This document shows, piece by piece, positions 3,280 through 64,000 of a stretch of DNA of 64,000 bases; positions within the stretch are counted from its first letter, which is position 1; each line of letters opens with the position of its first letter. The position numbers were made by a program, and so were the translations under genes. The notes under the pieces are model-generated. The model saw only the letters and a list, made by a program, of their open reading frames with translations. It was not told where the DNA came from and searched no databases. Where the stretch lies: the NCBI GenBank assembly GCA_964016885.1, contig OZ024741.1, positions 98,580,001 to 98,644,000 on the forward strand, given 5' to 3'. The stretch comes from Eledone cirrhosa (lineage: Eukaryota).

Positions 3280-3341
3280 TTTTATTATATATATTTCGGA
3301 GGTACTGTGCTGTTTTTTCAGTACGTCCTCATCAGATAAAA
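3280..3341 (-). ncRNA. Type I hammerhead ribozyme (family A1)
   Basis: Minus strand reads TTTTAT CTGATGA GGAcGTACTG-loop-CAGTACcTCC GAAA TATATA TA ATAAAA. Canonical core, stems I and II pair, palindromic stem III. Confidence 0.8.
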
Positions 3342-3958: not shown

Positions 3959-3960
<2 letters not shown>

Positions 3961-4540
3961 TCAAGATTAACTGAGACAAACATAGAGATACAATGTCTGT
4001 ACACTAATATATGTGTGTGAATTTTGTATATCTAATTATATATGCTATGTTTATGAATAACATTTTCAAAGCATTTTAGCTATGAATTTTGAAAGCTGAC
4101 GGCTAGCGCTATCTAGCGGATCCCGACAGAAGCACTAGAGCATAACTGTCAATGCGTTTCTGGCTTACGGCAATCATCAGGAGAGTGCTTCCTCCGCCCT
4201 GCTCTCAGCTTGAAATATAGGCAAAAATATATCATTTTTTTTCCGCCTATATATATGGGCTGATTAGCCTCATCTGCAAAATTCTATTTTCAGGCTGAGC
4301 CGGCCTGACAGCTCCACATACAAATGGGCATAATTAGCCTATTTACATAGGCGAAAAACTATATATCAAATTCCAGCAGAGAGCAGGGTGGGAGAAGCAC
4401 TTTCCTGATGACGGCCTTAAGCCAGAAACACTTTGTTATCCTCTACTGCTTCTGCTGGAATCCACTACATGGCACTAGCTGTCAGTTTACCAAATATTTA
4501 TTCGTAAACATACCTTATACCATTAGATATACAAATTCAT
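3959..4540. mobile_element. Old foldback element (imperfect ~500-bp palindrome) with a decayed HHR in each arm
   Basis: Arms pair (gtatatctaat/attagatatac, aagctgacggctag/ctagctgtcagttt, gagagtgctt/aagcactttc). CTGATGA..GAAA cores at 4146-4185 (-) and ~4400-4438 (+). (TA)n on both sides. Confidence 0.65.
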
Positions 4541-4712
4541 ATATATATATATACGTGTGTATGTGTATGTTTGTGAGTGCATATATATATCGACAGCTAG
4601 ATCTAGCTGTCGAAACGACCGGAGATCAGCCGTCGGGGTCCTGACTCTTTTCCTATTACCCACTCTGCTACCCTAAGTATGTATGTATGTATGTATATAT
4701 ATATATTTATAC

Positions 4713-4826
<114 letters not shown>

Positions 4827-4869
4827 CAATATATTAATAAATGGAAACTATATTTATAAAACCATAATT

Positions 4870-4931
4870 ATTTTATTATATATATTTCAAGGGCAACAAG
4901 GTAATTTTGGTGCGCTTTCATCAGATAAAAT
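4870..4931 (-). ncRNA. Type I hammerhead ribozyme (family A2, inverted copy)
   Basis: Reverse-complement copy of 4948-5010 with minor stem II differences. Confidence 0.7.
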
Positions 4932-4947
4932 ACAAAATATTATATAT

Positions 4948-5010
4948 ATTTTATCTGATGAAAGCGCACCAAAATTACCTTGGTTGCTCTTGAAATATAT
5001 ATAATAAAAT
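4948..5010 (+). ncRNA. Type I hammerhead ribozyme (family A2)
   Basis: ATTTTAT CTGATGA AAGCGCACCA-aaattacct-TGGTTGCTCTT GAAA TATATA TA ATAAAAT. Confidence 0.8.
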
Positions 5011-5141
5011 AATTATGGTTTTATAAATATAGTTTCCATTTATTAATATATTGAATATTTACTCCAGTAACTTATTGAGTGCTTTATATCAGTTATAAAA
5101 CTTTTAAGCTTGTTGAATCCCAACAAATTAAATATAACTTC

Positions 5142-5203
<62 letters not shown>

Positions 5204-7901: not shown

Positions 7902-9278
7902 ATTTCAATGCCCTCTCTACCTTTCTATATTTTCTCACACGTACATTTTATTTTTAATAGAGTTAGTAGTGAAGAACTGGCAACGCACGGAAACCTTTAC
8001 AGCGGGAATATTTCTATTAAGAAAAATGTCCGAAAACGACTTTTTCATTGACGAATATAACGCCTGCTTTCCACCACTCATAAATACAAGGCAAAACGCC
8101 GCCGCCACCAGTACTACCTCAGTCTCAACAGGGTAAATTTTATTAGCAGAGAAAAGTACCTCCGCTGCTCTGATCAATGCTACCATCATTTTCTCATTCA
8201 CTACAACTGTAAGTTTGAAACCTACAGTAGAATATACAGCATAGCTGGAGCAAAAGCTTGTTCTGGGAGAAATTCATCCCAAATGATGAGGATTTGAATG
8301 ATGCCAGAAATGTTATAAAGAGAGATGAGTGAAGGGAAAACTTCAGCAATCCATGGAGGGGGAAGAAACGTACGCAACATTGTAGAATCATTTTTTTCTG
8401 CAATGAAGTAATATCACGCCAGATTAAAGGAAAAGTAAGGTGCACATTTGAGAGTGCATAGAGTGTGTATTGGATATATAATCAAAAACACATCACCAGA
8501 AGAATACGGCTTGGTAGTGGTGAGATTCGGGACTGAGTCAAAAGCAAAATAGCTTTCTTTATCACCTCTATGGAGTGAGTCATTAATCTTAGTCCCAAAA
8601 TATCGCGGACAGCGCCTGACTAAAATGGGGTTCTCCCAAGTACAACCCAAAATATCTATTCTCAAGTTAGTTGCATCTTACCCAACATGATCGGGAATAA
8701 GTACAAGCCTTACCTAAATGATCCATCAATGCATAGAAGCTATCGCGACTTCTTGAGAGCACCTCTCCGTATGTGGCAATAGAAAACAACAGTTCACGTG
8801 CCCCACATATGACGGTGTTTTCCATAAAATTGGACATTCTGCCCACAGATAGCATTGAGAGAGGAATAGCAGCCAGACTTGTTAATGCCGCAAATGAAGC
8901 GACGACATCGCCAACATTGGGCAACCGCACTAGCAGAATGGCCACAGAGTCTGAAGAATCAACAGCAGCAGTACCTACAAATACATATTAGCGGCGAAAG
9001 TGATGTAAAAACAACAGCAGCAGTGGCAACACCAGCAGCAGCAACGAAAACAATAGCAACAAAACGAGCAATTTCAGAAACAATTGTACCAATACCTATA
9101 GTAACCACATACAACACATGCAACAAAAATAAGCAGTAGCTACAACAATCACAAGAACGACAGGAATAACTGGGTGTTTCAAAAGCCGATAAGAATCACT
9201 GAAATACAGTAATGGATGGCCGGCTGAAAGAGAATTAATTCGCCCTGTTCTTATGGTCTATTCTACGAGCATTATGTT

Positions 9279-9462
9279 TGGATTGGCAGTATTGGTAGCG
9301 GATCTGACGCCATGCGTTGCAGCACAGAGTTATGCCCCTTTACGGTCTGAGTTCAAATCTCGCCGAGGTTAACTTTGCCTTTCAACCTTACGGGGTCGAT
9401 AAAATAAAGTACCAGTAATGCTCTGGGATAACTGCTGGCCTTGTGCCAAAAGTAGAAACAAT
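9279..9462 (+). mobile_element. tRNA-derived SINE (family S1)
   Basis: A-box-like tggcagtattggtag, B box gagttcaaatc, shared body gcctttca..ggggtcgataaaataaagtaccag. Many copies in the window. Confidence 0.85.
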
Positions 9463-10079
9463 TATGTTTATATGCCAAACGTGTTCAAAAAATTCCTCTC
9501 ATGCGCTTCCACAAAGATTCTATCTACCATATTTCACTGCCAATGCATTTATAGAGTTAGCATGCCAAAGGGGACAGATCAAACCCGAAATCAGATCAAA
9601 CCCACAGTCAGATCAACTCGAAATCACATTGTTGCGAAACAAATATCTTAATCACACAGTCTTACTTCAATGAAGTAGCTTACGGTTCGAGCCATATTCA
9701 AGATCTTACCCGATTGGGAGTAAAATAGTTAATACATAATATATACAGTTCACCCTGCAACAAATCTGTTTTCAGGTTTGGCTAATATTAATCTTGTGTA
9801 GCATGACATGAAGGTGGTAAATTCTTTTGCTAACATCCGTGTTTAAATGTAAATTTAAAAAATACATGAATTGCCTGCATTCGTAAGCTCCATTATTTCG
9901 CGACTGAGAGGATTAAAAGGTGTTTATAGCGCATTTATAATAGAATATCCATTATAGGATGTCATTGTAAAGTGAAAACCACTCAAGATTATACAACTCT
10001 ATTGTTCAACTCAATTTGTTATGCAATCAGTCAGAATCTGCTGAAATTATTTTGCCTATTCTCATTTTAGTAAACAAAT

Positions 10080-15369: not shown

Positions 15370-15412
<43 letters not shown>

Positions 15413-15539
15413 GAATGTATATATAGTGTATTTTTCAATACACTGTATGCTAAATTAAAAGCATTTTGAAGACCTTACGCTATTGTTTTAAAGTAGTGAC
15501 TATGTCACTTACTTGTATTTTCAGGTAACAAGGGGAGAT

Positions 15540-15585
15540 AAGCTGACAGAGCTCTGTTTCGTACTGTTGGTACTTATCAAAACCT
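15540..15585 (-). ncRNA. Type I hammerhead with U3-A8 core (family C)
   Basis: AGGTT TTGATAA GTAC-caaca-GTAC GAAA CAGAGCTCTG TC AGCTT, with a GUC cleavage triplet. Confidence 0.75.
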
Positions 15586-16005
15586 ACCACTCCTCCTGTC
15601 CGCTGAAATTATGAATGTTGGATTCTTATAGAATTCCAGTAATATTCAGGAAGTGATTATACAGAGCGGTTGCAGGTCCAGCAAAAATTGAAAATTACAA
15701 TTAGTGCTCTGAAATAGCGATATATATATATATATGAATGTATATATAGTGTATTTTGCAATACACTGTATGCTTAATTAAAAGCATTTTGAAGACCTTA
15801 CGCTATTGTTTTAAAGTAGTGACTCTTGTCACTTACTACTATTTTCAGCAAACAAGGGGAGATAAGCAGACAGAGCTCTGTTTCGTACTGTTTTTCGTAC
15901 AATGTTTGCTGGACCCGCAACCGCTCTGTATAATCAGTTCCTGATTATTACTGGAATTCTATAAGAATCCAACATTCATAATGTTCAGCGGACATGAGGA
16001 GTACT

Positions 16006-16051
16006 AGGCTTTGATAAGTACCAACAGTACGAAACAGATCTCTGGCAGCTT
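16006..16051 (+). ncRNA. Type I hammerhead with U3-A8 core (family C), cleavage triplet mutated
   Basis: AGGCT TTGATAA GTAC-caaca-GTAC GAAA CAGATCTCTG GC AGCTT. Confidence 0.6.
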
Positions 16052-16859
16052 ATCTCACATTGTTTGCTGAAAATAGAAATAAGTGACATAGTCACTACTT
16101 TAAAACAATTGCGTAAGGTTTTCAAATGCTTTTAATTAAGCATACAGTGTATTGCAAAATACACTATATATACATTCATATATATCGCTATTTCAGAGCA
16201 CCAATTCTAATATATATATATATATATATAAACCTTAGCTGTTGGGTAATGTTTCGAAACATCCTACATCCACCCTGACAATTTTAACTAAGGTTATTCG
16301 TGTCATAGAATTTGCTGCAAGAGGAAGGGTGTGACTATACCTAGTGGGGGGCACCGGACATTGAAGGTGAGAGTAAAGACAGAAACGCATCAAATAATAT
16401 ATTACTCAAAATACCAGACAGACACCAATTGGCGTTTTTTTATTATCATCATCATCATCATTATCATCATCATCATCATTCAATTGCCTTAGTTATTTTG
16501 CGTGTTGTCATTGCACTACCGAACGAAGCTCTATGCGTCTTGGGGACGTGCAACATTATTAGTGTTGTTTCTATTGTATTAAATATACTCTACGTGATAT
16601 GCGTATAGTGCCTAGTAGTGCTATTTTCTGTATATTGTATATATTATTAACTCAAGGTCTTTTTGACTGTTTGTGTGTGTATGCGTGTATTTGTACGTGT
16701 CTGTGCGTGTGTTTGTGTGTGTGTCTGTATGTGTGAGCATTTGTGAGCATGTGTGTGTGTCTGTCTGTGCGCGTTGTGTGTGTGCACCTGTATGTCTTAT
16801 AATTCCGAAAGCATTATGAATAGAGTGTATTGTTTCCCTCGCCCTCATTCAGTGTATAT

Positions 16860-18060: not shown

Positions 18061-18537
18061 TAGATATAGATAGACACACACACACACATATATATATATA
18101 TTACATAAATACACCATGCATTGCGGGACATTTCCATCATCAGCCGTCGACAGAGGATCACATCGTTTTTACTAATATCCGACTGTATCACTCGTTCAAA
18201 GGGTGAAAAACAGCATTGCATCTACCAGAGAATTTGCGGGATATTTTGATAAACATCGTAACACGCTGTATACATATGCATGAGTGCGTGTTGGGGGTGT
18301 GACATATGTAATATTCTTGCGTGTGTAAATATATACTATATCTATCTATCTCCCTACTTTTCGGCGTACCTACTTGTCTATCTATAGCAAGCTCTGAGAC
18401 TATTTTAGCTCAGCCATCAGGGGACCTGACTCTTTTCAAATTATTTCATATTTCATATTACCCTAAGTATTGAGTATTTTGGTGCGTTATGGTCCACCTG
18501 GCATCTGACCACACCCTTTTTGTCATATATATATACA

Positions 18538-18806
18538 CACCAAGATTGGTATTTTATTTATCGACCACAATATAGTGGGTATAATTACCAAAAATAATTT
18601 TGACCGTTGCCCTAATGCTTCTGCTATTCACCACCAGCATTACATAGGAGAAATATTAGCCAAGGCACAAATAGAGACGGATAGAATTTCCGCCTTCAAA
18701 CTCCACATCATTCACCACACAATGTAATATTATATGTATAAATGACTACGTGTGTTTGTCTGACTATATATATCTACAAATGTATGTATCTCTTTCTCTG
18801 TCACAT

Positions 18807-18847
<41 letters not shown>

Positions 18848-18890
18848 ACATCCGAAGCTATGTCCGTTCTATTCCACTTGCCTCCACACC

Positions 18891-18959
<69 letters not shown>

Positions 18960-18961
18960 AC

Positions 18962-18993
<32 letters not shown>

Positions 18994-19388
18994 ATGTGAC
19001 AGAGAAAGAGATACATACATTTGTATATATATATAATTAGGTGACGAGGCAAGTGGAGGCAAGTGGAATAGAACGGACATAGCTTCGGATGTTATATATA
19101 TATATATGTGTGTGTGGGGGGGGGGGGGGTGATAGAGAAACAGAGAAAGAGATAAATACATTTGTACAAACACACGTAGTCATTTATACATATAAGATTA
19201 CAATGTGTGGTGAATGATGTGGAGTTTGAAGGCGGAAATTCTATCCGTCTCTATTTGTGCCTTGGCTAATATTTCTCCTATGTAATGCTGGTGGTGAATA
19301 GCAGAAGCGTTAGGGCAACGGTCAAAATTATTTTTGGTAATTATACCCACTATATTGTGGTCGATAAATAAAATACCAATCTTGGTGT
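18538..19388. repeat. Inverted duplication centred on a (TA)n tract
   Basis: 18538-18760 is nearly the reverse complement of 19165-19388. Inner arms 18844-18900 and 19034-19098. Confidence 0.9.
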
Positions 19389-20379
19389 GTATTCCTGGAA
19401 TCGTTGGAGTATCAGGTGAGATTGCTTGCGTTATTTACTGCGCCACACTGTATTCCCATTTCAAATCCCATAGCGGCATGACAGAAACCAGTGAAGAGAA
19501 TAGAGGCCCACTATGTATTTATCTGTAGTATAGATAGCATTAGAGCGATCCATGACACTCAAACTACCGAGGAAGGAGATGAGAGAACTTATGTTACTTT
19601 TTCTTCTTTTGTTTTCCGGTTTTCAGTTTATATTCCAAACATTGTTCGAAAGTTCAGTGATGTTCTCCGAGAATTTATTGATTGGACAAGATATTATGCC
19701 AGTAAAGGATACTTTTGAATAAGTCTATGTAAATCCTATAAATCGTATATGTGTATTGTTAGTGGAGCGAACAACAGTTCAATCTAAGCAAGATAGCTAA
19801 TTTTGAACGACGACAAATTTTTTATTAAATACCTAGTGATGCCCGTTTAAAATACGTAAAAGATTACTGGTAAATATAGTGATGTATCATATCTTACATC
19901 ACTACGTCGTTAATAGTATTTTCTCTGAAATCACTGATGTCAACAGATGACTCAAACACCAACAAAATGAAACCGATACAGGTAAATATAATCCCTCCCA
20001 CATAAATTATATTTTTGTGCGTAGAATACACTGGCGATTCACTACATCTGTTCTCAGTGATGTCCGTATGTTCGCTTCATCAAGCAATAATAACGTGTTG
20101 CATGAGGAATCGGACACAAAGAAACTCTGAGTAGCGACGGAATGAATTGTCTGGTTGAAAAATATATGAGTAAGTGTATATATTTTTTGCGAATATCCTG
20201 TATAAGATAAAAGCAGAAATTCTTTACTTAAACTTTAATCTGTACTAATGATAAATATTTGCACTACGGGTTTATATATACTTATATATATATACAATCC
20301 TTATCGAGCTCTCTTCGGATTTTGGTCTTTGTATTTATCATTACTATAGATGTGTGTGTGTGCGCTTGCGAATATGTAC

Positions 20380-20412
<33 letters not shown>

Positions 20413-20416
<4 letters not shown>

Positions 20417-20598
20417 AACCAGTAAGACCCCGACAGCTGAGCTCAAGCTGTTTCGACGGCTAATTCTGAATTAGCCGTCGAAACGGCTTGAGCTCAGCTG
20501 TCGGGGTCTTACTGGTTCCTATTACCCACTCTACTACCTCAAGTATTGAGTACTTTGGTGCGTTATGGTCCACCTGGTTCCTTACCACATTTCCTTCG

Positions 20599-20600
<2 letters not shown>
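20413..20600. mobile_element. Family B foldback element, short 5'-truncated copy
   Basis: ~55-bp inverted arms centred near 20467 plus an ~80-nt tail ending cttcgtt. (TA)n on both sides. Confidence 0.85.
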
Positions 20601-20660
<60 letters not shown>

Positions 20661-25626: not shown

Positions 25627-26032
25627 CGAGAGAGAGAGAAAGAAGGATAGAGATAGAGAGAGACGAGAGGGAGAGACTGTGTATGTTTTGTGTACAACTG
25701 CGTGTATGTGTTTTTTAATATGCCTATGTGTATGTAAAGAGGTTCCGTGCGATGTGCTGAAAACGAATAGAATGACAGAGTTGATATATGGCAAATTAAA
25801 GGAAGAAGAAGAAGGAGAAGAAGAAGAAGAAGAAGAAGAAGAAGAAGAAGAAGAAGAAGAAGAAGAGAGCAGCAGCAGCAGCAGCTAAAACATCAAAAAC
25901 AACTACCACATCAACAAACATAACAGTACCTACAACAACTAAATGAGAGTATATGTGAAGGAGGACAGAAGTGACAAAGATTGCCACAGGAAGTATAAAT
26001 CCAACAGCGGCAGTAACAATATAATGATAATG

Positions 26033-26627
26033 ATTTCTTATATAGGCACAAGGCCAGCAATTTTGGGAGAGGGGAAACTCGATTAAAATCGACCCCAGTA
26101 CGTTACTGGTGCTTTATTTTATCGAACCCGTAAGAATGAAAGGCAAAGTTAACCTCGGCGGTATTTGAACTCAGATCATATAGGGCCGAAACTCTATGCT
26201 GCAAAGGATAGTGTCCGACTCTCTACCGATACTGCCAATCCACTGCCCTTAATAACAATATTAATAATAACAAGAGGGCGGTGGATTGGCAAGTATCGGT
26301 AGAGAGTTACAGCCCTTTATGGTCTTAGTTCAAATCCCGCCGAGGTTAACTTTGCCTTTCATCCTTACGGAGTCGATAAAATAAAGTACCAGTAATGCAC
26401 TGGGATAATTGCTGGCCTTGTGCCAAAAGTAGAAACAATATTAATAATTGTTTCTACGTTTGGCACAAGGCCAGCAAAATACCCAGTGCATTACTGGTAC
26501 TTTATTTTATCGACCCCGTAAGGATGAAAGGCAAAGTTAACCTCGGCGGGATTTGAACTCAGAATGGCAAGAGCCGTAACTCTATGCGTCAAACATGGCG
26601 TCCGACCCTCTACCGATACTGCCAATT
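26033..26627. mobile_element. Cluster of three S1 SINEs in -/+/- orientation (26033-26250, 26275-26439, 26446-26627)
   Basis: Each matches the 9279-9462 SINE. Confidence 0.85.
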
Positions 26628-26710
26628 AATAATAACAGCAATATCACCAATAATAGGAAATGTTGAATAAGGTGGTACTGGATACTCTGCCTATAGGAAA
26701 AGCGCAGGTT

Positions 26711-29553: not shown

Positions 29554-30871
29554 CCAAGCCGTCTACCACTTCATCAACTCACACACATAAGCACAAAAAT
29601 CTATAAGATTCTAGCCTATTTTAATCTCAGTAGAAGTAGGGAGATATGTAGTCTTGTATTTGCTGAGATTAAGTTTGTGACGGGGAATGGATTACAACCT
29701 TAACGATTTATAACGAAAGGCTTTCAAATGTTGTTCATAAACATCCCGTATATTATTCAATATACAATACATATATATATACATATATATATATATATGT
29801 GTGTGTGTGTCTGTGTGTGCGTGTGTTGGAACACAAATACAAATGTGTACGTTTGAATATATATATATATATGTGTGTGTGTATGTTTGTATGTATCTAT
29901 CTATCTATCTATCCATGTATCTATATATGTACGCATGTATGTATCTGAGTGTGTATGTGTGTTTGTATGATGTATGTGTGTGTGCATGTGTATGTTCCAA
30001 GCTGAAGGTGACATTCTTGCCTATAGGATGATGAAATTCTGTATGGGAGTATACTATTCAAGGAACTTTTCTGGGGTGTTTCGTACCTAATTTCATTTGC
30101 GCTATGGTGACACAAGACTGAAACATAGTATATAGAGAAGAAAATACAAAAAGGTATGTATTCACTTACAAGGGGTAAAGGACCACTAGAGTGAAAAACA
30201 TAAAGTCTAAGAAAGGATAGGAAAATACATATTAATTAAAAGATTAAATCAAAATTCATAGACCAACCTTTTATAACTATACAAACCTGAACAAACTCTA
30301 ATAATAGAAGGCGTCGCCATAAAAAATGTCGATTCCATGACTCTTAGGGCTTCTGAACAGGTGTAAAGACAACATGGTCAACACTTCTAAAAATATTTCA
30401 GACAACTGAAATATCGCACACGGTGAAAAAGACGAAAACATGCGCGCTACACAGTACATAGTGGCTTAAATGGATCAAAAGACCGCTAGAAATAGCAGCC
30501 TACAACCATTCAACTTAAGAAGCTCAACTTACATAAGGAAATGAGTTATGAGCCCAAATATCAAATGAAAAAAACGGAGTTTAAAATTCACGCGAATCCC
30601 CTGTAATTACTGGGGATTTAACGAGTTTTTAACACCATTATTTTCATTATATATATATATATATATTATAAGTAAGTATACGTACATACATATATGTATA
30701 CAGACGTACAGTAGTATGTATATATACATACATGCACACATATATATATGTACGTATGGATTCATCGAACATTTATTATAATGCTCGGTGTGTTTGTAAA
30801 CAACATCCCGAATTAAGCCGTACAATGTCTAGCAACCATCGTTGCTCATCTGTTCAACACTGACAAAGGAA

Positions 30872-30912
30872 CGCTGTACTAGTTTCAAGCTCATTAGCTA
30901 TCGTCAGCAACG
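30872..30912 (-). ncRNA. Minimal type I hammerhead ribozyme (family D)
   Basis: CGTTG CTGACGA tAGCT-aatg-AGCTt GAAA CTAG TA CAGCG. Confidence 0.85.
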
Positions 30913-31302
30913 TATACCTTCCTGCCAGATGATTGAACGTCTGAAAGTATATACTTTCCTTATGCATATTAACGGCTGAGCAGCCTAATTTGCATATAGA
31001 GTGAGTTATTCGGCCGGGGTACCGAAAACGATAAACGGAAAAAATGAAACGAAATTTCATTTCTCACTCTTAGTACGGCTGTTACTTAAATATAAGTATG
31101 TATACGTACATACATATATGTATACAGACGTACAGTAGTATGTATATATATATATACATGCATGCACACATATATATATGTACGTATGGATTCACCGAAC
31201 ATTTATTATAATGCTCGGTGTGTTTGTAAACAAACATCCCGAATTAAGCCGTACAGTGTCTAGCAACCATCGTTGCTCATCTGTTCAACACTGACAAAGG
31301 AA

Positions 31303-31343
31303 CGCTGTACTAGTGTCAAGCTTATTAGCTATCGTCAGCAACG
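31303..31343 (-). ncRNA. Minimal hammerhead (family D), core mutated GAAA>GACA
   Basis: Same fold as 30872-30912 with one core substitution. Confidence 0.65.
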
Positions 31344-31764
31344 TATACCTTCCTGCCAGATGATTGAACGTCTGAAAGTATATACTTTCCTTATGCATAT
31401 TAACGGCGGAGCTAGACACTGTACGGCTTAATTCGGGATGTTTGTTTACAAACACACCGAGCATTATAATAAATGTTCGGTGAATCCATACGTGCATATA
31501 TATATACATGTGTGCATGTATGTATATATATATACATACTACTGTACGTCTGTATACATATATGTATGTACGTATACATACTTATATTTAAGTAACAGCC
31601 GTACTAAGAGGGCGAAATGAAATTTCGTTTCATTTTTTCCGTTTATCGTTTTCGGTACCCCGGCCGATTAACTCACTCGCTATGCAAATTAGGCTGCTCA
31701 GCCGTTAATATACATAAGGAAAGTATATACTTTCAGACGTTCAATCATCTGGCAAGAAGTTATA

Positions 31765-31805
31765 CGTTGCTGACGATAGCTAATAAGCTTGAAACTAGTA
31801 CAGCA
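31765..31805 (+). ncRNA. Minimal type I hammerhead ribozyme (family D)
   Basis: CGTTG CTGACGA tAGCT-aata-AGCTt GAAA CTAG TA CAGCA. Confidence 0.82.
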
Positions 31806-32192
31806 TTCCTTTGTCAGTGTTGAATAGATGAGCAACGATGGTTGCTAGATACTGTAAGGCTTAATTGGGGATGTTTGTTTACAAACACACCGAGCATTAT
31901 AATAAATGTCCGGTAAATCCATACGTACATATATATATGTGTGCATGTATGTATATATATATACATACTACTGTACGTCTGTATACATATATGTATGTAC
32001 GTATACATACTTATATTTAAGTAACAGCCGTACTAAGAGTGAGAAATGAAATTTCGTCTCAGTTTTTCCGTTTATATATATATTATATATATATATATAC
32101 ACGTAGAAATAGCCGTCGAATATATATATGTATAGTCCAGAAATAGCCCTCGAGACGGCTTGAGCTCTGCCGTCGGGGTCATACTTTTTCCA

Positions 32193-33763: not shown

Positions 33764-33805
<42 letters not shown>

Positions 33806-33809
33806 TTAT

Positions 33810-34203
33810 TATTTCTACTTTTGGCACAAGGCCAGCAATTATCGCAGTGCATTACTGGTACTTTATTTCATCGACCCCGTAAGGATGAAAGGCAAAGTTA
33901 ACTTCGGCGGGATTTGAACTCAGACCATAAAGGGCCGTAACTATTTGCGTCAAAGCATTGCGTCCGACCCTCTACTGATACTGCCAATCCACCGCCCTTA
34001 ATAATAAAAATAATAATTGTTTCTACTTTTGGCACAAGGCCAGCGATTACCAGTATATTACTGGTACTTTATTTTATCGACCCCCGTAAGGATGAAAGGC
34101 AAAGTTAACCTCGGCGGGATTTGAACTCAGAACGTAAAGGGACGTATCTATACTGGAAAGCATGGCATCCAACCCGCCACCGATACTGCCAATTCACCGC
34201 CCT
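33810..34203 (-). mobile_element. Two tandem S1 SINEs (33810-34000, 34016-34203)
   Basis: Reverse-complement matches to the S1 body and boxes. Confidence 0.85.
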
Positions 34204-34352
34204 AATAATAATAATAATAATGATACTATTTATAGTTATGTATATACTAAAAACAACTATAAACATTGATAATGTTCCGATGATTCAAACGTAAGTTTGG
34301 AAGAAACGATTGTCAGCAATTAAATAATTTGAACATAACTTTGACAAATGTG

Positions 34353-36990: not shown

Positions 36991-37061
<71 letters not shown>

Positions 37062-37065
<4 letters not shown>

Positions 37066-37278
37066 AACGAGTAGGACCCCGACGGCTGAGCTGAAGCCGT
37101 TTCGATGGCTAATTCTCGACTAAATGTGCCTTGAGTCCTTTAGTCCAGAATTAGCCGTCGAAACGGCTTGAGCTCAGCCGTTGGGGTCCTACTCGTTCCT
37201 ATTACCCACTCTACTACCCTAAGTATTGAGTACTTTGGTGCGTTATGCTCCATCTGGCTCCTTACCACATTTCCTTCG

Positions 37279-37280
<2 letters not shown>
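37062..37280. mobile_element. Family B foldback element, short copy
   Basis: Same termini as 20413-20600, with ~62-bp arms. Confidence 0.85.
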
Positions 37281-37346
<66 letters not shown>

Positions 37347-40662: not shown

Positions 40663-40712
<50 letters not shown>

Positions 40713-40724
40713 GGAACACGTAAG

Positions 40725-40818
40725 ACCCCGACGGCTGAGCTCAAGCCGTTTCGACGGCTAATTCTGGACTGAATGAAAATTTATTCTGGTATTTAAATAG
40801 CCGAGCTTATCAAGGGGT
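40725..40818 (-). ncRNA. Type I hammerhead with U3-A8 core (family B, inverted copy)
   Basis: Reverse complement of 41121-41214. Confidence 0.78.
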
Positions 40819-41120
40819 AATTCCATATATGGTCAAAGAGACAATCACCAGGATTGGTCACATCACAAGTTAGTAGTAAATCGGTGATGGCAAATTGGTG
40901 GGGGAAGGGGTAGCTAAACCTGCCGGTAGGAGAAAAAAGGGAGAGGTGGTGGAGTAGACCCATTCATGCGTTGGTAGTGCCGGCTACAGGTAGCCGGCAC
41001 TACCAACGCATGAATGGGTCTACTCCACCCCCCCCCCCCACCAATTTGCCATCACCGATTTACTACTAACTTGTGATGTGACCAATCCTGGTGATTGTCT
41101 CTTTGACCATATATGGAATT

Positions 41121-41214
41121 ACCCCTTGATAAGCTCGGCTATTTAAATACCAGAATAAATTTTCATTTAGTCCAGAATTAGCCGTCGAAACGGCTTGAGC
41201 TCAGCCGTCGGGGT
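41121..41214 (+). ncRNA. Type I hammerhead with U3-A8 core and extended stem II (family B)
   Basis: ACCCC TTGATAA GctCGGCTA-[~37 nt]-TAGCCGtC GAAA CGGCT-tgagctc-AGCCG TC GGGGT. Confidence 0.8.
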
Positions 41215-41305
41215 CTTACTTGTTCCTATTACCCACTCTACTACCCTAAGTATTGAGTACTTTGGTGCGTTATGGTCCACCTGGTTCCTTACCACATTTC
41301 CTTCG

Positions 41306-41352
<47 letters not shown>

Positions 41353-47230: not shown

Positions 47231-47400
47231 ATAGATAGGTAAATATACACGGGTGTGTATGATTGTGTATAGAAGATTATATTAATAAGAGGAATTCCAA
47301 CTTTGTCTGATTTACTCGTTTTATTTACAATCCTTTAAAATATATATAATGGTATTATAATGAAATAGTATGATAGAATATTAAATTCTAAGTGTTAATT

Positions 47401-47437
47401 GAACAAGTACTTTCATGCTTTCGCAATCTTCAGGTTC
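47401..47437 (-). ncRNA. Minimal type I hammerhead in the PLE terminal region (inverted arm)
   Basis: Reverse complement of 50077-50113. Confidence 0.8.
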
Positions 47438-47816
47438 ATGATATGTGGTGACAGTCGAGTTTGCAATTTTCAACTGTAATGAGATGGGTAAATTTCCTAC
47501 CTTTTATACATTTTATACAGAGAAAAGTGGCTCCAGAATGCAAAGCCCTGTAAACTGTATTTCGACCAATCAGTATGTAGTTTCACTGAATTACTACAGC
47601 TGATTGGTTTAAGCGTCACGGCTGGTTGAGCATGCTAACGACCAATAGTCATATCCAACGTATCAATTGTTTTGCTTTTTTGAAATGATGAAAATAGCAT
47701 TTTCTATTAATCATCACCATCAACATCACTTTTATTATTATTATTATTGTTGTTGTTGTTGTTGTTGTTAGTGGTCGTGGTCATAGTGGTAGTAGAAGTA
47801 ATACCTCTAGGCGTTA

Positions 47817-48561
47817 TTATTGTTCATTTAGCTTGGGTTTGAATTTATCAATAAAATTCTTTTCTTTGATTTTTCTCTTGATTTCACTTGGGCTGTGTAA
47901 TTTGTAGAATGGGAATATTATAAATATTCCCTGACCACATGTTGCCAGGTGGCCGCTTAGGGGTATCTGACGGACATTTGGGTCTCTGATTTGTTGACGG
48001 TGTACCCGTGCACGTTCCGATAGTGCATTTCCAGTTTGACCGACATATAGTTCTTCACAATTCGGGCATTTAATGCAGTAAATTAGATTTCTGCTTTTGC
48101 AGTTCATATTTGCATTTGTGAATATTTTTCCAGTTTTTGTTTTCATATATTGACCGGCGTGTATGGATTGACATGTGCCGCATCGATTATCATTGCATTT
48201 AGATACAGTGAATGATTGGTCTTTGTTGTTAAGGTCAAACTTTGCTTTTGTTAGCAATTGCTTCAAATTTTTTGGCTGTCTTTTACTAAGAGTCAAAGAT
48301 CGATCTGTGATTAAGCCTTTTAATTCATTACTTTGAGCAATGATCGGTAGGTTTGCTTTGGCAGTGTTGAAGATATTCTGGTGACATGGGTTGTGTGTCA
48401 TTATAAATGGTATGACCAGTTCTTGGTTTCTTCTTCTTTGGGTTGTTCTAAGTTGTTGTATAGGTATTTTTATAGCCCGCTGTATGCCATTTTCTATAAG
48501 TAGAGATGGGTATTTTTGTTTGAGCAAAAATTCTCTTAGTTCTGTTAGGCGTTTGTACCTG
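47817..48561 (-). pseudogene. Inverted truncated copy of the PLE ORF C-terminus (linker plus GIY-YIG)
   Basis: Its translation matches the C-terminal part of 48564-49700. Confidence 0.9.
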
Positions 48562-48563
48562 TA

Positions 48564-49700
48564 ATGGGATACTTAGAACAACAACTCTACCAAGAAATAG
48601 AGGAAAAATATAGTACTGACTTTAGAAAGTACATTGAAAAATCTTGGAAGAGATACCTTGACGACTGTTTCATCATCTGGACAGAATCTCTAGATACTCT
48701 GGATGAGTTCAATATCCTCCTGAATAACCTACACCCATCTCTCCAATTCACAAAAGAGATGAGTAGGACCAAATTACCATTCCTAGATATAATGATAATC
48801 AAAAACGACACCACCATTACCACGGATATATATTATAAACACACAGACACCCATCAATATCTGAATTTTAAGTCGTGCCATCCACCTCATACAAAACGCA
48901 ACATCCCATACTGCCTAGCCAGAAGAATTTGTACCATTGTAGAAGATACGAATACCAGGTACAAACGCCTAACAGAACTAAGAGAATTTTTGCTCAAACA
49001 AAAATACCCATCTCTACTTATAGAAAATGGCATACAGCGGGCTATAAAAATACCTATACAACAACTTAGAACAACCCAAAGAAGAAGAAACCAAGAACTG
49101 GTCATACCATTTATAATGACACACAACCCATGTCACCAGAATATCTTCAACACTGCCAAAGCAAACCTACCGATCATTGCTCAAAGTAATGAATTAAAAG
49201 GCTTAATCACAGATCGATCTTTGACTCTTAGTAAAAGACAGCCAAAAAATTTGAAGCAATTGCTAACAAAAGCAAAGTTTGACCTTAACAACAAAGACCA
49301 ATCATTCACTGTATCTAAATGCAATGATAATCGATGCGGCACATGTCAATCCATACACGCCGGTCAATATATGAAAACAAAAACTGGAAAAATATTCACA
49401 AATGCAAATATGAACTGCAAAAGCAGAAATCTAATTTACTGCATTAAATGTCCGAATTGTGAAGAACTATATGTCGGTCAAACTGGAAATGCACTATCGG
49501 AACGTGCACGGGTACACCGTCAACAAATCAGAGACCCAAATGTCCGTCAGATACCCCTAAGCGGCCACCTGGCAACATGTGGTCAGGGAATATTTATAAT
49601 ATTCCCATTCTACAAATTACACAGCCCAAGTGAAATCAAGAGAAAAATCAAAGAAAAGAATTTTATTGATAAATTCAAACCCAAGCTAAATGAACAATAA
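48564..49700 (+). CDS. PLE polyprotein C-terminal part (RT YLDD and thumb, Cys-rich linker, GIY-YIG endonuclease); 5'-truncated, so the Met is probably not the native start
   Basis: WKRYLDDCF, LPFLD, YYKHTDTHQYLNFKSCHP, CNDNRCGTC, NLIYCIKCPNCEELYVGQTG and terminal FIDKFKPKLN. The frame is uninterrupted. Confidence 0.92.
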   Translation: MGYLEQQLYQEIEEKYSTDFRKYIEKSWKRYLDDCFIIWTESLDTLDEFNILLNNLHPSLQFTKEMSRTKLPFLDIMIIKNDTTITTDIYYKHTDTHQYLNFKSCHPPHTKRNIPYCLARRICTIVEDTNTRYKRLTELREFLLKQKYPSLLIENGIQRAIKIPIQQLRTTQRRRNQELVIPFIMTHNPCHQNIFNTAKANLPIIAQSNELKGLITDRSLTLSKRQPKNLKQLLTKAKFDLNNKDQSFTVSKCNDNRCGTCQSIHAGQYMKTKTGKIFTNANMNCKSRNLIYCIKCPNCEELYVGQTGNALSERARVHRQQIRDPNVRQIPLSGHLATCGQGIFIIFPFYKLHSPSEIKRKIKEKNFIDKFKPKLNEQ

Positions 49701-50076
49701 TAACGCCTAGGGGTATTACTTCTACTACCACTATGACCACGACCACTAACAACAACAACAACAACAATAATAATAATAATAAAAGTGATGTTGATGGTGA
49801 TGATTAATAGAAAATGCTATTTTCATCATTTCAAAAAAGCAAAACAATTGATACGTTGGATATGACTATTGGTCGTTAGCATGCTCAACCAGCCGTGACG
49901 CTTAAACCAATCAGCTGTAGTAATTCAGTGAAACTACACACTGATTGGTCGAAATACAGTTTACAGGGCTTTGCATTCTGGAGCCACTTTTCTCTGTATA
50001 AAATGTATAAAAGGTAGGAAATTTACCCATCTCATTACAGTTGAAAATTGCAAACTCGACTGTCACCACATATCAT

Positions 50077-50113
50077 GAACCTGAAGATTGCGAAAGCATG
50101 AAAGTACTTGTTC
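50077..50113 (+). ncRNA. Minimal type I hammerhead in the PLE terminal region
   Basis: GAAC CTGAAGA tTGC-gaaa-GCAt GAAA GTAC TT GTTC, with palindromic GTAC stem III. Confidence 0.82.
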
Positions 50114-50335
50114 AATTAACACTTAGAATTTAATATTCTATCATACTATTTCATTATAATACCATTATATATATTTTAAAGGATTGTAAATAAAACGAGT
50201 AAATCAGACAAAGTTGGAATTCCTCTTATTAATATATATATATATATATGTATATATATATGTATATATATATGGATATATATATGTATATATATATGTA
50301 TATATATATGGATATATATATGTATATATATATGG

Positions 50336-51848: not shown

Positions 51849-51954
51849 CATACAGATTCTTGGACGCATATATACATGCATCAACACATCCGTATATGCA
51901 ATCTATCTATCTGTCTATTTATCTGACCCTGTCTCTCCCTCTCTCCCTCTCTCT

Positions 51955-52016
<62 letters not shown>

Positions 52017-52114
52017 AGAGAGAGGGAGAGACAGGGTCAGATAAATAGACAGATAGATAGATTGCATATACGGATGTGTTGATGCATGTATATATGCGTC
52101 CAAGAATCTGTATG
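51849..52114. repeat. Inverted duplication (~100-bp arms) centred on (TA)n
   Basis: catacagattcttggacgc... pairs with ...gcgtccaagaatctgtatg. Confidence 0.92.
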
Positions 52115-54397: not shown

Positions 54398-56738
54398 ATA
54401 TATATATGTGTGTGTATAGAGTGTGCATGTGCATTTATAGCTACTTTTTTCTTGTTTGAAGTGTACAGGTTGTTGCACAGCAGAAAAGTCTGTGTTCGCT
54501 TATGTGGGTATATGGGTGTGTATGCGGATATAAGGGTGTAATGCATTATTTTCAGAGTATGTGTGTATTTATAGTTATTTTCGTCGTTTGATGTGTACAG
54601 GTTATCAAGCAGCATGGAATTATGAATGGGTCTATGTGTGATAGCATGGGGCTGTGTATGGCTGTTTATGTGCGTGTTTGTTTGTGTATGTAGTTATAAG
54701 AAAGGTGTTACCTTGCATGCCTATTTTTCTTTCCTGCTTTTAATATCAGGTTGTCTGACAATATATATGTGTATGAATGTGTATGTGTACTTATTACTGC
54801 GTCTGTATGTTTATCACTGCATGTGTGATTAAGAATTGAAATGTAATGTTTTTTTTTAGTATGTGTGTGTGAGTATGTATTACTTGTGTGTGCTGTGCGG
54901 GAATATGTGCTGAGTGTACTGTTGTACATGGGCTCAAGCATAGCAAAATAGTTAATCAGTTTGTGTTGCAATCAAGTGGTTCCTAATTTGGAATCTCATG
55001 ATTGTGAATGAAATTAGGTAAATGAAAACTGTGTTGAAACCCATCTGTAAACTGTAACTTTAATTCAAATGACCAGCCTTATCACATACTATGAGGCGCT
55101 GCTGTTAATGGATTATCTTAAGTGTACAAGTGTCTATATGATATTCAGGTCCTTTTAATATAATTGAATTGTTAGGCAGTTCAGTTGATTGAAATCTGGA
55201 ATACTCATTGTTGAAACAGACGGTGAAATCATGTGGCCGAGTGGTTAGGATGTTGCGCTTAAGATCACAATGTCGTGAGTTCGATGCCTTGACCGGATGG
55301 CACGTTGTAGTCTTGAGCAAAACATTTTATTTCACACTACTCTAGTCAACTCCTCTGAAAATGAGTAGTAGCAACGATCTAGCGTCTTGTTTGGAAGAGT
55401 ACATTATATTCTCATTCCCTTAATACCAACGGATCTAGGAAAATTGTTGCAATGAATATTAATACCTCTATCTGTATAACATTTTTAATGAATTTTTAAT
55501 CATAGCAGTTTTGCCTTGTGAGAATTTAAAATAAAAACCAGCAATATATTGAGGCATAGAATGCTACAAGTCTATTTTTCAATCAATAATGCTGTCTTCT
55601 CGACAAATGCAGCCTTTCATTTGAAACTTGAATTGGAATTTGCAGCTCACACTTACACAGATTTAGCTGGTTGCATACGAAGTATCGAGCTCATAACCTT
55701 ATAAATATGAATCGAACAGCCTAAATACTAGACCACTTGCATCTAGTTTAGTGATGACAAAATAAAAATCCATATAGGTTGATGTTATTATGATTGCTGC
55801 TTAGTCATGGCTAGAGTAAACCTATGTTCATTGGCGTTCCTGCCGTAATCAAATTGTGTTTTCATACATTGTCTAACGTCGACTTTCACTTTCTTTTAAA
55901 GGTTTGTGAGATTTTTCAGAGAATATTGTCTACTACTTGTAGCAGACCACTTACAGGCAACCATCTTGCTTGTGTGGTGACGGTGGTGCGAAGGGTGTAA
56001 TAATGCTCAAAATTGTATCGTTGTTGTTTTGCCTCCTAACTCTAGTCAGTGCTGGTCGAACAGACCACGATCATCCCGAATTCTTTTTTGCAGCTATAAG
56101 GCATATTTTCCAGCGTCTGTACTTTGAGGGAGATATTGCTGCTATTTTTATCTGCCAAGTCGAGCAACAACCTAGACGTTCCATCGTTGGCTCGAAAATC
56201 AATATATTGATATGAAATGTACGATGCCAGTCTGAATGTATTAGTGTGTTAATATATGCATATATAAGCAGTGGCATTGTTCCTAATCAAAAGGAATAAA
56301 TATATGCATGAAGGTGATGGTGTTAGTCGAGATGATACACCTAACTAAATGCAATGCAGTATTTCTTTTCTTTCTAATATGAATGGCTGAATGGTGAAAA
56401 CGTTAATCACATGGTGCTACGTTCGATCTTACAGCATGGTACATTGAGAAAAATACCCTTTACTACTGCTTTTGTAATTACCCGGTCCTTGTGAACGAAA
56501 GTATGTAGGTGAGCCTCAGTTGCACTATACTTGCAATTCAATTGTCCAGCCTTGTTGCACACAGTGGTATACTTGGCTACATAAAGTATGTAGTTCCATT
56601 GAGTGTGAAACTACTTTCAGACAGTAGCAGTAGAGCTGTTGACTTGTGATGTTGAGTTCAATTCTTCCCATGGGAGAAGCTACCTCCAAAATTCCACAGT
56701 CCTATCAAATAAGAGTTTTATTTCTCGGTCACCTAGAG

Positions 56739-58287
56739 CAGGGGTCACCAAACTACCGCCCGCGGGCCGGATCAGGCCCGCGACGTCAGTTCATCAGGCC
56801 CGCCGATGGTACTTGCATTTGCGTGATAAAACGGATGGAACAAGAGATATTTCTAATTCAATGTCTTTTTCATTTTCAGATCCCGTTTTCTTCATCCTTT
56901 ATTATTGCTACTAAGAAAAGAAAAGTGAACGCCGAGAAAAGTGAACGCCGCGTTTTCAATGAAGAATGGGGAGTAAAGTACTTCTTTGTGGAAACAAAGG
57001 ACCAGAAAGCTAGTTGCGTGGTATGCAGCGAAAGTGTTGCCGTTTTGAAAGAGTACAATCTTCAGCGTCACTATGAAACAAAACATCTATCAACATATTC
57101 AAAGTTTTCTGGAAAGTTACGCTCTGAGAAATATGAGTCCATGAAACGTGGTTTAGAAACTCAAAGAAATCGCTTTACGAGAAAGTTTGCTGAAAATGAA
57201 TCTGTCACTCGTACAAGTTACAAAATAGTGCATAAGTTGGCAGAGCGAGGAAAACCGTTTACTGATGGCAACTTCATCAAAGAGTGTATGATGGAAGCAA
57301 CAAATGACTTGTGTCCTGAGAAAGCCGATTTGTTTGGAAGTATCAGCCTTTCGGCAAGTTCAGTTGTGCGTAGAACAGAAGAACTTGGAGAGAACATAGT
57401 GCTACAGATACGCGAGAAAGCTAGGAACTTGTTGTGCTGTCATTGTTTGAAGCACAAATGGAAGGAGAAAACTTCTCTCATTTTCACTGTTTCAAAGAGT
57501 TTTGCGCTAAAATTGCTGAAGATGTCAACCTCGATTTTCCTAAAAAGATTATTCGTGACTTGAAGAAGCATTTTTTGGAGAGATTTTCAGATCTCGACAG
57601 AAATGAAAGTGACATTCTTCTGTTCCAGAATCCGTTTGATTGTAATCTTGATGATGTGCCAGTTGAACTACAGTTGGAGCTCATTGATTTGCAAGCAAAT
57701 GACTTGTTGAAAGAGAAGCACAGAGAAGGAAAACTTGTTGAATTTTACCGCTTCTTCCCTGATGTTGAGTTTCCGAAATTGAAGAAATTTGCCGCTGGTA
57801 TGGCATCATTGTTTGGAACAACTTATGTCTGTGAGCAAATATTTTTAAAAATGAAGTCAACACATCGAACGAGATTGACTGATGAACATTTGAAAGCAAT
57901 TCTCTTGATTGAATGCAGCAATTCCAAACCAAACATTGATGATATCTTGAAAGCCAAACGTCAGTTTCACAAATCTCATTAATCTTTTTTGCTGCTTAGT
58001 TTGTAAGATTAGGATATGTGCACACTAGGTCTGATGTAACTATATTTTTGCTAACGCCGCCTTCTTTGATAACGTTTTAGTAAATAAATATGTTGGTTGT
58101 CTTTGCTTTGTGTGCATTGCACGCCACTCACCCATGATTAACATGGAATGCTAAACGTAGTGTTTCGTCTTTTTTCCCAAAGCTTTCGTTCTGGCTTGCA
58201 AGTATTGAACAGAATGATTATGCGGCCCGCGCTCGTCATTCTTTCAGTTATCCGGCCCACTGTGAAAAAAGTTTGGTGACCCCCCTG
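56739..58287 (+). mobile_element. hAT DNA transposon (Charlie/Buster-type), internally deleted
   Basis: TIRs caggggtcaccaaact and agtttggtgacccc..ctg, with a perfect 8-bp TSD acctagag at 56731-56738 and 58288-58295. Confidence 0.95.
56903..57982 (+). pseudogene. hAT transposase remnant (GTF2IRD2/Charlie-like): N-terminus fused out of frame to the C-terminus, catalytic middle missing
   Basis: KRKV..RVFNEEW..KYFF..CVVC..LKEYNLQRHYETKH and KPFTDGNFIKECM, then a frame change near 57437 to LFQNPF..LQLELIDLQ..FGTTYVCEQIF..RTRLTDEHL. Confidence 0.88.
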
Positions 58288-60766: not shown

Positions 60767-62123
60767 GTCAGAATAATAATTTGAGAATTAAAGTTTGCTT
60801 CTATAAGCCATTGTTTAGTCGATTTCTCCCATAATAAATCAAGAATTTGGACTGAAATTGCAGTGGAATGTATCTTCACGTGCTGATATATTTTGTGCAA
60901 CACTAATCCTTTTCTGTTAATTGCCCAGCCTTATTTTTTAAACTCGAAATGAGGCCAAATTTTAGAAAGGACCATACGTGCATTGTGATCACTAATAATA
61001 TCAGTTTATTACTGGTACTTTTTAATTTAATGTTTACTACTTAAAGCTGTGCTCTTGCATATCATTAGCCAATTCTTTTAAAAAAGAGAGAAAAAGAGAG
61101 AGCGATGTGGAGGATAAAATAAAAAGGAAATTTCCCCTGGTGGAATTAGAAATCAAAAAGACAAATTTACACTGCTATGAAATTAGTGACATGTGAAAAA
61201 TAAAAACACAGTTGGTTTGTGCAGATGTGTGTTAGAGAGATAAGTGAACTGTCATGTATTTGAAACAGTAAAACAGAAGAATATATAAAAGAGAGCAGTA
61301 GTAAAGGCAAAAGATATTCTACGGGGTAATTAGAACGTGACGTGTCCCGTCCCTAAACAATACGCCTTCTTCAAGCTGTTCTGCTAAATCTTTCATCTTT
61401 CACAGATGAAAAAATCATGGGAACATAAATTAACACCTAGACGCCACCCTAATCGAATAGTTGCCAACCCTCTCAGCAACAGTAAATGATTCTACGGAAT
61501 AGAAACACTATTGGTGTAACTAGTGACCTTATCTTACATGTTATACCAACACAGATGGTCCTAATGCGTTAACGAAATTAAGACAGTAAACTGTGACATC
61601 AGTTCCGCCTCTGTTTCACTTTATTTTGTCTTCGTCATCAGATAGCAACACCTCTGTCGCCATCAGATAACAGTGCCTCCTTCGCCATAAAATAGTCACA
61701 CCATCGTCACCGCCTTCAGGATATTCGGTTTCTCTTCACCAGTTGCTCGATGTCAACAATGTGATAACGTTACCACCCAACACCACTACCACACATAAAC
61801 GTTTTGTATGGCTTGTTTTAAATGTCTGTGCTCATGGCATTCACACACCCAACAAGATGTCGATAGAGCAGCTAGAAATAATAACCAAATCTTTCTCTTC
61901 ATAAAATCACAATCTGAAAAAAAAAATGTATTAGTTTCTGTAGTCCGGTGCGTAACAATGCATAAAATAGGTGGGATTGTAAGTTCTACAAGATATAATC
62001 ATAAGACTGCTAATGCTTGACTACCGTGGGTTAAACAACAGCAACAACTACCTTAATAATATTAGAAAAGGGCCAGTAATTTGTGAGGGGAAAGTAACTA
62101 AAACATTATTTCGTCGACAATGT

Positions 62124-62320
62124 AGGGCGGTGAATTAGCAGTACAGTATCGGTAGAGCGTCGGACACCATGCTTTGTGGCATTGAGTTACGACCCTTTAC
62201 GGTCTGAGTTCAAATCCCGCTGAGGTTAACTTTACCTTTCATTCATACAGGATCGATAAAATAAAGCACCAGTAACGTACTGGGGTCGATTTAATCGACT
62301 TTCCCCTCCCTACAAAGTTA
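62124..62320 (+). mobile_element. S1 SINE
   Basis: gggcggtgaattagcag start, B box and shared body. Confidence 0.85.
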
Positions 62321-63711: not shown

Positions 63712-63809
63712 ATATATACATATATATATATTGGAAAATGTGTGAAATCCTTGGTACAGTTATGTATATTTAGAAAAAAAGAAAATGACTTCACTTGTAG
63801 TTCTAAATA

Positions 63810-63990
63810 ATTGTTTCTACTTTTGGTACAAGGCCATCAATTACCCCAGAGCATTACTGGTACTTTATTTTATCGACTCCGTAAGGATGAAAGGCAAAGT
63901 TATCCACGGCGGGATTTGAACTCAGACCATAAAGGACGTAATTCTATGCTGCAAAGCATAGCATCCGACCCTCTACTGATACTGCCATTC
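63810..63990 (-). mobile_element. S1 SINE
   Basis: Reverse-complement match to S1. Confidence 0.85.
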
Positions 63991-64000
63991 CAAAATAATG

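Follow-up and report, generated by a model that had tools for sequence, protein, structure and literature searches.

What kind of element is a short hammerhead-bearing repeat that lies in tandem on both sides of an inversion, and what inserted it? This question is raised by the locus at 30667-32075 of the window analysed here, i.e. the whole stretch of 64,000 nucleotides of Eledone cirrhosa DNA, which is animal DNA rich in microsatellites. We suggest, with a probability of roughly one half, that the locus holds a non-autonomous element of the non-LTR retrozyme type, inserted by the machinery of Penelope-like elements (PLEs) from a 431-nt circle cut out at GUA sites. The two parts of this reading are graded separately: a non-autonomous element driven by a PLE is likely and, given such an element, a circle is somewhat favoured as its template, which brings the whole to about 0.5.

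Self-comparison of the window resolved 30667-32075 as one element made of two arms of a single unit (Table 1). The repeat period is 431 nt, counted from cleavage site to cleavage site on the minus strand (30877-31307); the left arm comprises 746 nt and runs, in the ribozyme sense, from 31412 to 30667, and the right arm has 665 nt. The arms are 94-96% alike, with substitution differences of 2-5%, and both the tandem and the inversion lie far above chance expectation (E 1e-69 or better), which bears out the more-than-unit-length, inverted arrays on each strand that the first-pass annotation had described. At the junction the right arm starts at unit position 44, and at the other extreme the 3' end of each arm enters (TA)n, flanks in which a target duplication is unreadable; the right arm reaches 60 nt further along the unit than the left arm. 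As had also been claimed, the unit of about 431 bp is without an ORF: when circularised (GC 36.9%) its longest ATG-initiated frame encodes 68 aa in the sense and 38 aa in the antisense direction, and 30667-32075 carries no ORF with reverse transcriptase (RT) plus GIY-YIG as in an autonomous PLE.

Table 1. Positions of the features of the hammerhead element, and of the coding Penelope-like element, in the window
Feature	Position	Strand	Basis
(TA)n target microsatellite, left side	30648..30666	.	sequence
Left arm, 1.73 units; 5' end = junction, 3' end near unit position 216	30667..31412	-	
Sole complete 431-nt unit, flanked by cleavage sites	30877..31307	-	
Type I hammerhead, intact; GUA cleavage predicted after 30877; core at 30907-30877	30866..30922	-	
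Second hammerhead, core GAAA changed to GACA at 31315, likely inactive	31297..31353	-	
Octamer ATGCAAAT, lying 88 nt before the core and 119 nt before the predicted cut	30988..30995	-	
5'-to-5' inversion junction, 2-nt (GC) microhomology	31411..31412	.	
Right arm, 1.54 units; 3' end near unit position 277	31411..32075	+	
Octamer ATGCAAAT	31682..31689	+	
Hammerhead, core 31770-31800 intact, helix I weakened	31755..31811	+	
60-nt one-sided tail past left-arm end point; end recurrent in 66 X1 contigs	32016..32075	+	
(TA)n target microsatellite, right side	32076..32099	.	
Penelope-like element, two 5'-truncated arms joined 5'-to-5' in very long (TA)n	47237-50236		

The surroundings of the element are themselves repetitive. 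The left flank (30050-30640) is a decayed low-copy repeat to which contigs of the public sequencing run X1 are about 85-90% alike, and on the right the element is adjoined by a fragment (32133-32185) of a short dispersed repeat headed by a palindrome, other copies of which are present at 20412-20650, 37061-37315 and 40708-41350, always beside (TA)n. Moreover, a SINE-like family of 190-207 nt was found at 9270-9473, 26027-26635, 33797-34221, 62123-62310 and 63806-64000, with a tandem arrangement at 33.8-34.2 kb and an inverted one at 26.3-26.6 kb, and 56643-57982 contains disrupted reading frames and a Spin-doc zinc finger (PF18658), probably the remnant of a hAT-type transposase.

Hammerhead ribozyme (HHR) cores were located with a purpose-made descriptor, which gave three in total: one on the plus arm and two, spaced by 431 nt, on the minus strand, of which the upstream one (31338-31308) has one mismatch. 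The ribozyme has a helix I of 6 bp with an internal loop and an extension of 4-5 bp, a helix II of 4 bp over a U.U pair, a helix III of 1-2 bp capped by a palindromic loop, and GUA as its site. The minimal HHRs of PLEs are described as having 7-8 bp in helix II, 4-5 bp in helix I and no helix III (PMC4209133), a pattern from which the motif of the 431-nt unit departs, and judged by its sequence it is of the canonical animal type I and not of the minimal PLE type. The proposal of one minimal HHR per monomer consequently stands in part: the HHRs are in tandem on the minus strand, but there are three and not four, and their type is canonical. The Rfam search of the window returned no hammerhead at the gathering score or among the 150 of 171 E-value matches listed; its microRNA matches were set aside as TA hairpins below their gathering scores. 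When folds of 66 nt around the HHRs were compared with shuffles their stability was not above these (z 0.05 to 0.85). No variant falls in the catalytic core among the 40 listed of the 180 found in the comparison with public runs.

Efficient cutting by canonical metazoan type I HHRs requires a dimer (PMC4209133). In a cofold of two HHR copies the double hammerhead was not the minimum-energy form, so cleavage as a dimer is argued from precedent. In a constrained fold the plus HHR reaches -4.1 kcal/mol versus -12.8 kcal/mol for the minus copies, and because the upstream minus HHR has a GACA core and helix I of the plus HHR is weakened, the locus itself is probably unable to release a monomer. Two consecutive intact HHRs, by which Li et al. 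2026 recognise an 'active' copy, are absent from the locus; this concerns the activity of the 30667-32075 copy and not that of the family.

The unit as a whole is predicted to pair strongly with itself. Folded as a circle it reaches -146 kcal/mol with 70% of its nucleotides paired (z -9.0 relative to shuffles), and the corresponding z values are -8.9 for the linear unit and -7.6 for the circle without its TA hairpin; helices I and II of the HHR are present in the predicted circular minimum-energy fold. Upstream of the HHR, the octamer which had been placed about 85 nt before the plus HHR was found 88 nt ahead of the core, at +31682, and a second time at -30995, such that both segments covering that place carry it (2/2). 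It occurs in 2.9% of shuffles of the unit and 0.04 times per 431 nt by expectation from the rest of the window, and was not seen by eye at the matching place in two other elements of the window (c and e). Taken alone the octamer is weak evidence, and a role as promoter element is speculative. The promoter of newt satellite 2 is said to include an octamer. A promoter of snRNA type has been reported for that satellite (PMC2220036), in the available text of PMC2837043 nothing was found on an octamer promoter of it, and metazoan retrozymes are seemingly without promoters (PMC7761336). A fuller reading, in which a retrozyme with its own snRNA-type promoter gives a circle that is copied for more than one turn, from two fixed sites, by a Penelope enzyme that targets microsatellites, is rather unlikely in our estimation.

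The geometry of the insertion is that of PLEs, for which partial tandems, an inverted 5'-truncated copy, a tail of 30-40 nt at one end and a bias for (TA)n have been described (PMC8557442), the tail arising because reverse transcription starts at two internal sites (PMC11167929). Each of these features has its counterpart at 30667-32075, i.e. partial tandem, inverted 5'-truncated copy, one-sided tail and microsatellite target, the tail being longer, at 60 nt, than the range given for PLEs. Classical twin priming fits poorly, since the 3' end of the inverted arm (216) does not adjoin the 5' start of the forward arm (44). In all five HHR-bearing inverted elements examined in the window (5/5) the arms meet 5'-to-5', (TA)n lies on both flanks and one end carries a tail; the tails, counted from the printed ends, are about 57 nt at 3.95-4.56 kb, about 85 nt at 4.82-5.15 kb, about 25 nt at 15.37-16.24 kb, 60 nt at 30667-32075 and about 41 nt at 47.24-50.24 kb.

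The last of these is a coding PLE with an RT motif, a CX4CxxC linker and a GIY-YIG domain (PF01541), arms that are 99.5% alike, the tail on its left arm, and a minimal HHR at -47433 and at +50081; linkers of this kind are tied in the PLE literature to Neptune elements and a microsatellite bias. The 431-nt unit shows no homology to it (best E 0.046 over 19 nt), and tblastn with its protein gave matches confined to 47.8-49.7 kb of the window. This PLE, being unlike the 431-nt unit in sequence, is evidence that the machinery is present and not evidence of a partner. At 15374-16230 lies an ORF-free partial tandem of a unit of about 322 nt, with an inversion, (TA)n flanks and degenerate HHR cores at -15580 and +16011. 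A diverged inverted pair at 3960-4560 is 67% alike, with (TA)n flanks, an HHR-like core per arm and its tail on the left arm, and the short inverted pair at 4821-5145 has HHR-like cores at -4924 and +4955; a single motif at -3335 (3286-3335) is related to this last pair, and the Rfam match to MIR171 within the pair is spurious, coming from the central hairpin. Large inverted repeats at 18533-19392, 40708-41231 and 51849-52114, around or beside (TA)n, gave no match in the HHR scan.

Public sequencing runs place this copy within a family. Eleven runs contain part of 30100-31100, of which none (0/11) is on record as RNA, and four of 14 (X1, X4, X6 and X12), one of three RAD runs among them, were compared with the element. 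For X1, whose library type is not on record, 10,853 contigs were placed in a comparison that skipped the TA-rich part of the unit as repeat and covers the right-arm type of end. Summed depth in X1 is 0.3-2.9 million over the unit versus 111-1229 over the flank, which is not a copy number; its use as copy number or as a profile of 5' truncation was rejected, as the depth is shaped by subfamily divergence. Relatives of the unit are present also in X4 and X6, which have other organism labels than X1 (three labels altogether), and on a plain reading of these sequences the 431-nt family appears to be very large. Patterns scanned against metagenome contigs and viral contigs gave 0 matches.

In total 66 X1 contigs stop within (TA)n at 31031, the map position of the right-arm end, and the recurrence of this 3' end speaks against array ends that are freely permuted, as had been supposed. 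The strand changes at 8 of the 15 joints listed (46 in all), each at a different place; in five of these eight the lengths of the sides leave a 5'-to-5' join as the sole arrangement, and in the other three they are compatible with it. Each such joint is backed by 1-3 starts, and in a RAD library some of the joints may be PCR switches. Record 8 of X1 and records 12 and 14 of X4 are contigs that cross 31031 toward the octamer, and units that wrap around the recurrent end thus exist beyond 30667-32075. In X12, the 27,504 loose ends at 31051-31053 and the begin and end positions were rejected as boundaries of elements or cleavage because they lie on AATT/CATG sites and look like effects of a restriction library. 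The combination of a retrozyme-type unit and a PLE-style inversion proposed earlier is accordingly supported, and strengthened by the tail, the fixed 3' end, the (TA)n target and the 5'-to-5' joins across the family, as well as by the matching geometry of the coding PLE in the window.

These data bear on two explanations that do without a retrozyme. One is an origin at the DNA level, as a satellite or foldback product of unequal exchange or palindrome formation, or an assembly artefact, for which it may be said that the genome is TA-rich and palindromic and that the locus is confirmed by no read set among the four runs compared. The arms are, however, unlike a read foldback in their substitution differences, and the differing junctions in other copies, the fixed 3' end and the tails in five unrelated elements point to target-primed insertion; we therefore consider this origin very improbable. 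The other sees debris of the ordinary pLTR of an autonomous PLE that lost its ORF by 5' truncation and had its terminal region locally duplicated in tandem. The geometry is as in truncated PLEs, pairs of minimal HHRs on opposite strands and 100-700 bp apart have been interpreted as such (PMC4209133), and 18 of 570 loose ends are listed, which leaves room for copies attached to an ORF. Yet in either arm the sequence continues over the 3' end and reaches the HHR region of the next unit in no more than 154 nt, so that an ORF has no room, the same wrap-around continuity recurs in the X1 and X4 contigs, and the HHR type is unlike that of the PLE in the window. Debris of this kind is improbable, though less so than an origin at the DNA level. 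A non-autonomous element inserted by PLE machinery is the reading that we carry forward.

Whether its template was a circle depends on how the segments relate to one another. The five segments differ at 26 variable columns, of which three two-segment columns were left out, and all of the remaining 23 are singletons: none of the ten four-segment columns is split by arm (0/10), and the 13 three-segment columns cannot separate a singleton from an arm-specific change, such that 5 of the 13 could be arm-specific. Change rates do not differ (p 0.14), with about 1.8% private changes in each segment. Moreover, all three segments covering 30850 (3/3) share an allele that accounts for <0.1% of the X1 depth and <2% of the X12 reads; the exact flank of the locus was not recovered in X1, and X1 may therefore stem from a different species, with the shared allele then perhaps a species trait. 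From the star-like singletons and the shared allele, both arms look copied from one sequence.

Such star-like segments fit a circle read repeatedly and likewise the transcript of a young homogeneous array. The earlier step from permuted multimers to reverse transcription around a circle does not follow, since a linear multimer that stays uncleaved would also account for the data. Here, the element would still be PLE-driven and non-autonomous, the template would be a linear transcript, left uncleaved, from a source copy with homogeneous tandem units, the hammerhead would be inherited from a parent pLTR, and circles would be by-products or absent. PLEs normally yield partial tandems, as do non-autonomous Chlamys elements that have no HHR (PMC8557442), insertion of the PLE PAc in vitro works without HHR cleavage, its HHR mutants still inserting (PMC11167929), and the 3' end is fixed. 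Against a linear template, the HHR is canonical and not minimal, the self-pairing of the whole unit is far above shuffles, and circles have been demonstrated in coral, mussel and axolotl families of similar build (PMC7229834). A linear template is accordingly possible, at something under one chance in three, and we continue with the circle.

A circle-based route would begin with intact tandem copies elsewhere, which would be transcribed and then cut at their GUA sites, probably as a double hammerhead formed through the palindromic helix III, after which a host ligase would close the monomer to a 431-nt circle. The RT-endonuclease of a PLE would nick both strands of a (TA)n tract, and synthesis would be primed at two fixed sites within the unit, some 60 nt from one another. 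Every cDNA would pass one full turn before stopping at a position that varies, and microhomology would join the two ends that are thereby 5'-truncated. The 30667-32075 copy would later have gathered its private changes, and its broken core would leave it unable to yield monomers.

The class of the element is already known, and it is the full PLE insertion footprint that appears to be new for retrozymes. Among the papers listed by a literature search, with subscription papers mostly outside its scope, neither this footprint nor inversions were found described for retrozymes, and none treats cephalopod retrozymes. The enzyme that mobilises animal retrozymes has been called an open question (PMC7761336, PMC7229834). 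If the fuller reading outlined above, with its own promoter and a circle copied by a Penelope enzyme, is true, inversion, tail and (TA)n together would be a direct insertion footprint that links retrozyme circles to PLEs, and the Penelope route would be shared by several small, mutually unrelated HHR families of this genome. That a coding PLE and an HHR unit lacking an ORF show one footprint within 64 kb is a separate line of evidence, and it makes testable the two predicted priming sites on a 431-nt template, the (TA)n target and the choice between a circular and a linear template.

Among known systems, the metazoan non-LTR retrozymes (Cervera and de la Pena 2020, PMC7229834) have in common with the 431-nt unit a size of 150-450 bp (350-390 bp in mussel; Rtz_331 and Rtz_353 in axolotl), the absence of an ORF, a GC content <50%, one type I HHR per unit and strong self-pairing; HHR_Amex1 likewise has a weak palindromic helix III, and HHR_Amex2 the basal U.U pair of helix II. 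The locus presents short tandem type I HHR units without coding capacity, no LTR build (on the basis of ORF length and GC), a self-paired monomer with an HHR predicted to fold, and a multi-copy dispersed family, and at the level of sequence the unit fits all the features of non-LTR retrozymes that were examined. It is unlike them in its arms of 1.5-1.7 units, 5'-to-5' inversion, tail and (TA)n target, circle and cleavage being predictions here; the words 'inverted' and 'microsatellite' are absent from the available main text of PMC7229834. Endonuclease-bearing (EN+) PLEs (Penelope/Poseidon, Neptune and Naiad; PMC8557442, PMC11167929, PMC4209133) are like the element in the partial tandem, the inverted 5'-truncated copy, the one-sided tail, the microsatellite target and an HHR upstream of the 3' end, and differ from it in that the element is without an RT-EN ORF, has a canonical HHR and a tail of 60 versus 30-40 nt.

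Non-autonomous Chlamys elements, e.g. MRC1 (PMC8557442), are similar in being non-coding and in having PLE-made insertions of the pLTR type and head-to-tail, but they are algal, mostly without a canonical HHR, and have a 3' end like that of their autonomous partner. Newt satellite 2 shares a tandem HHR unit with a weak helix III, and the reported snRNA-type promoter is internal to it (PMC2220036). Finally, animal retrozymes have been argued to be non-autonomous PLE derivatives from co-occurrence and pLTR homology (10.64898/2026.07.22.740005). The Xenopus families treated there, of whose dimers one of nine was cleaved in vitro and eight of nine were not, a result that counts against the reading preferred here, are tandem HHR units and proposed PLE derivatives, as is the element described here; in its available text the Xenopus case is built on co-occurrence and homology and not on insertion structure, which is where the footprint at 30667-32075 differs.
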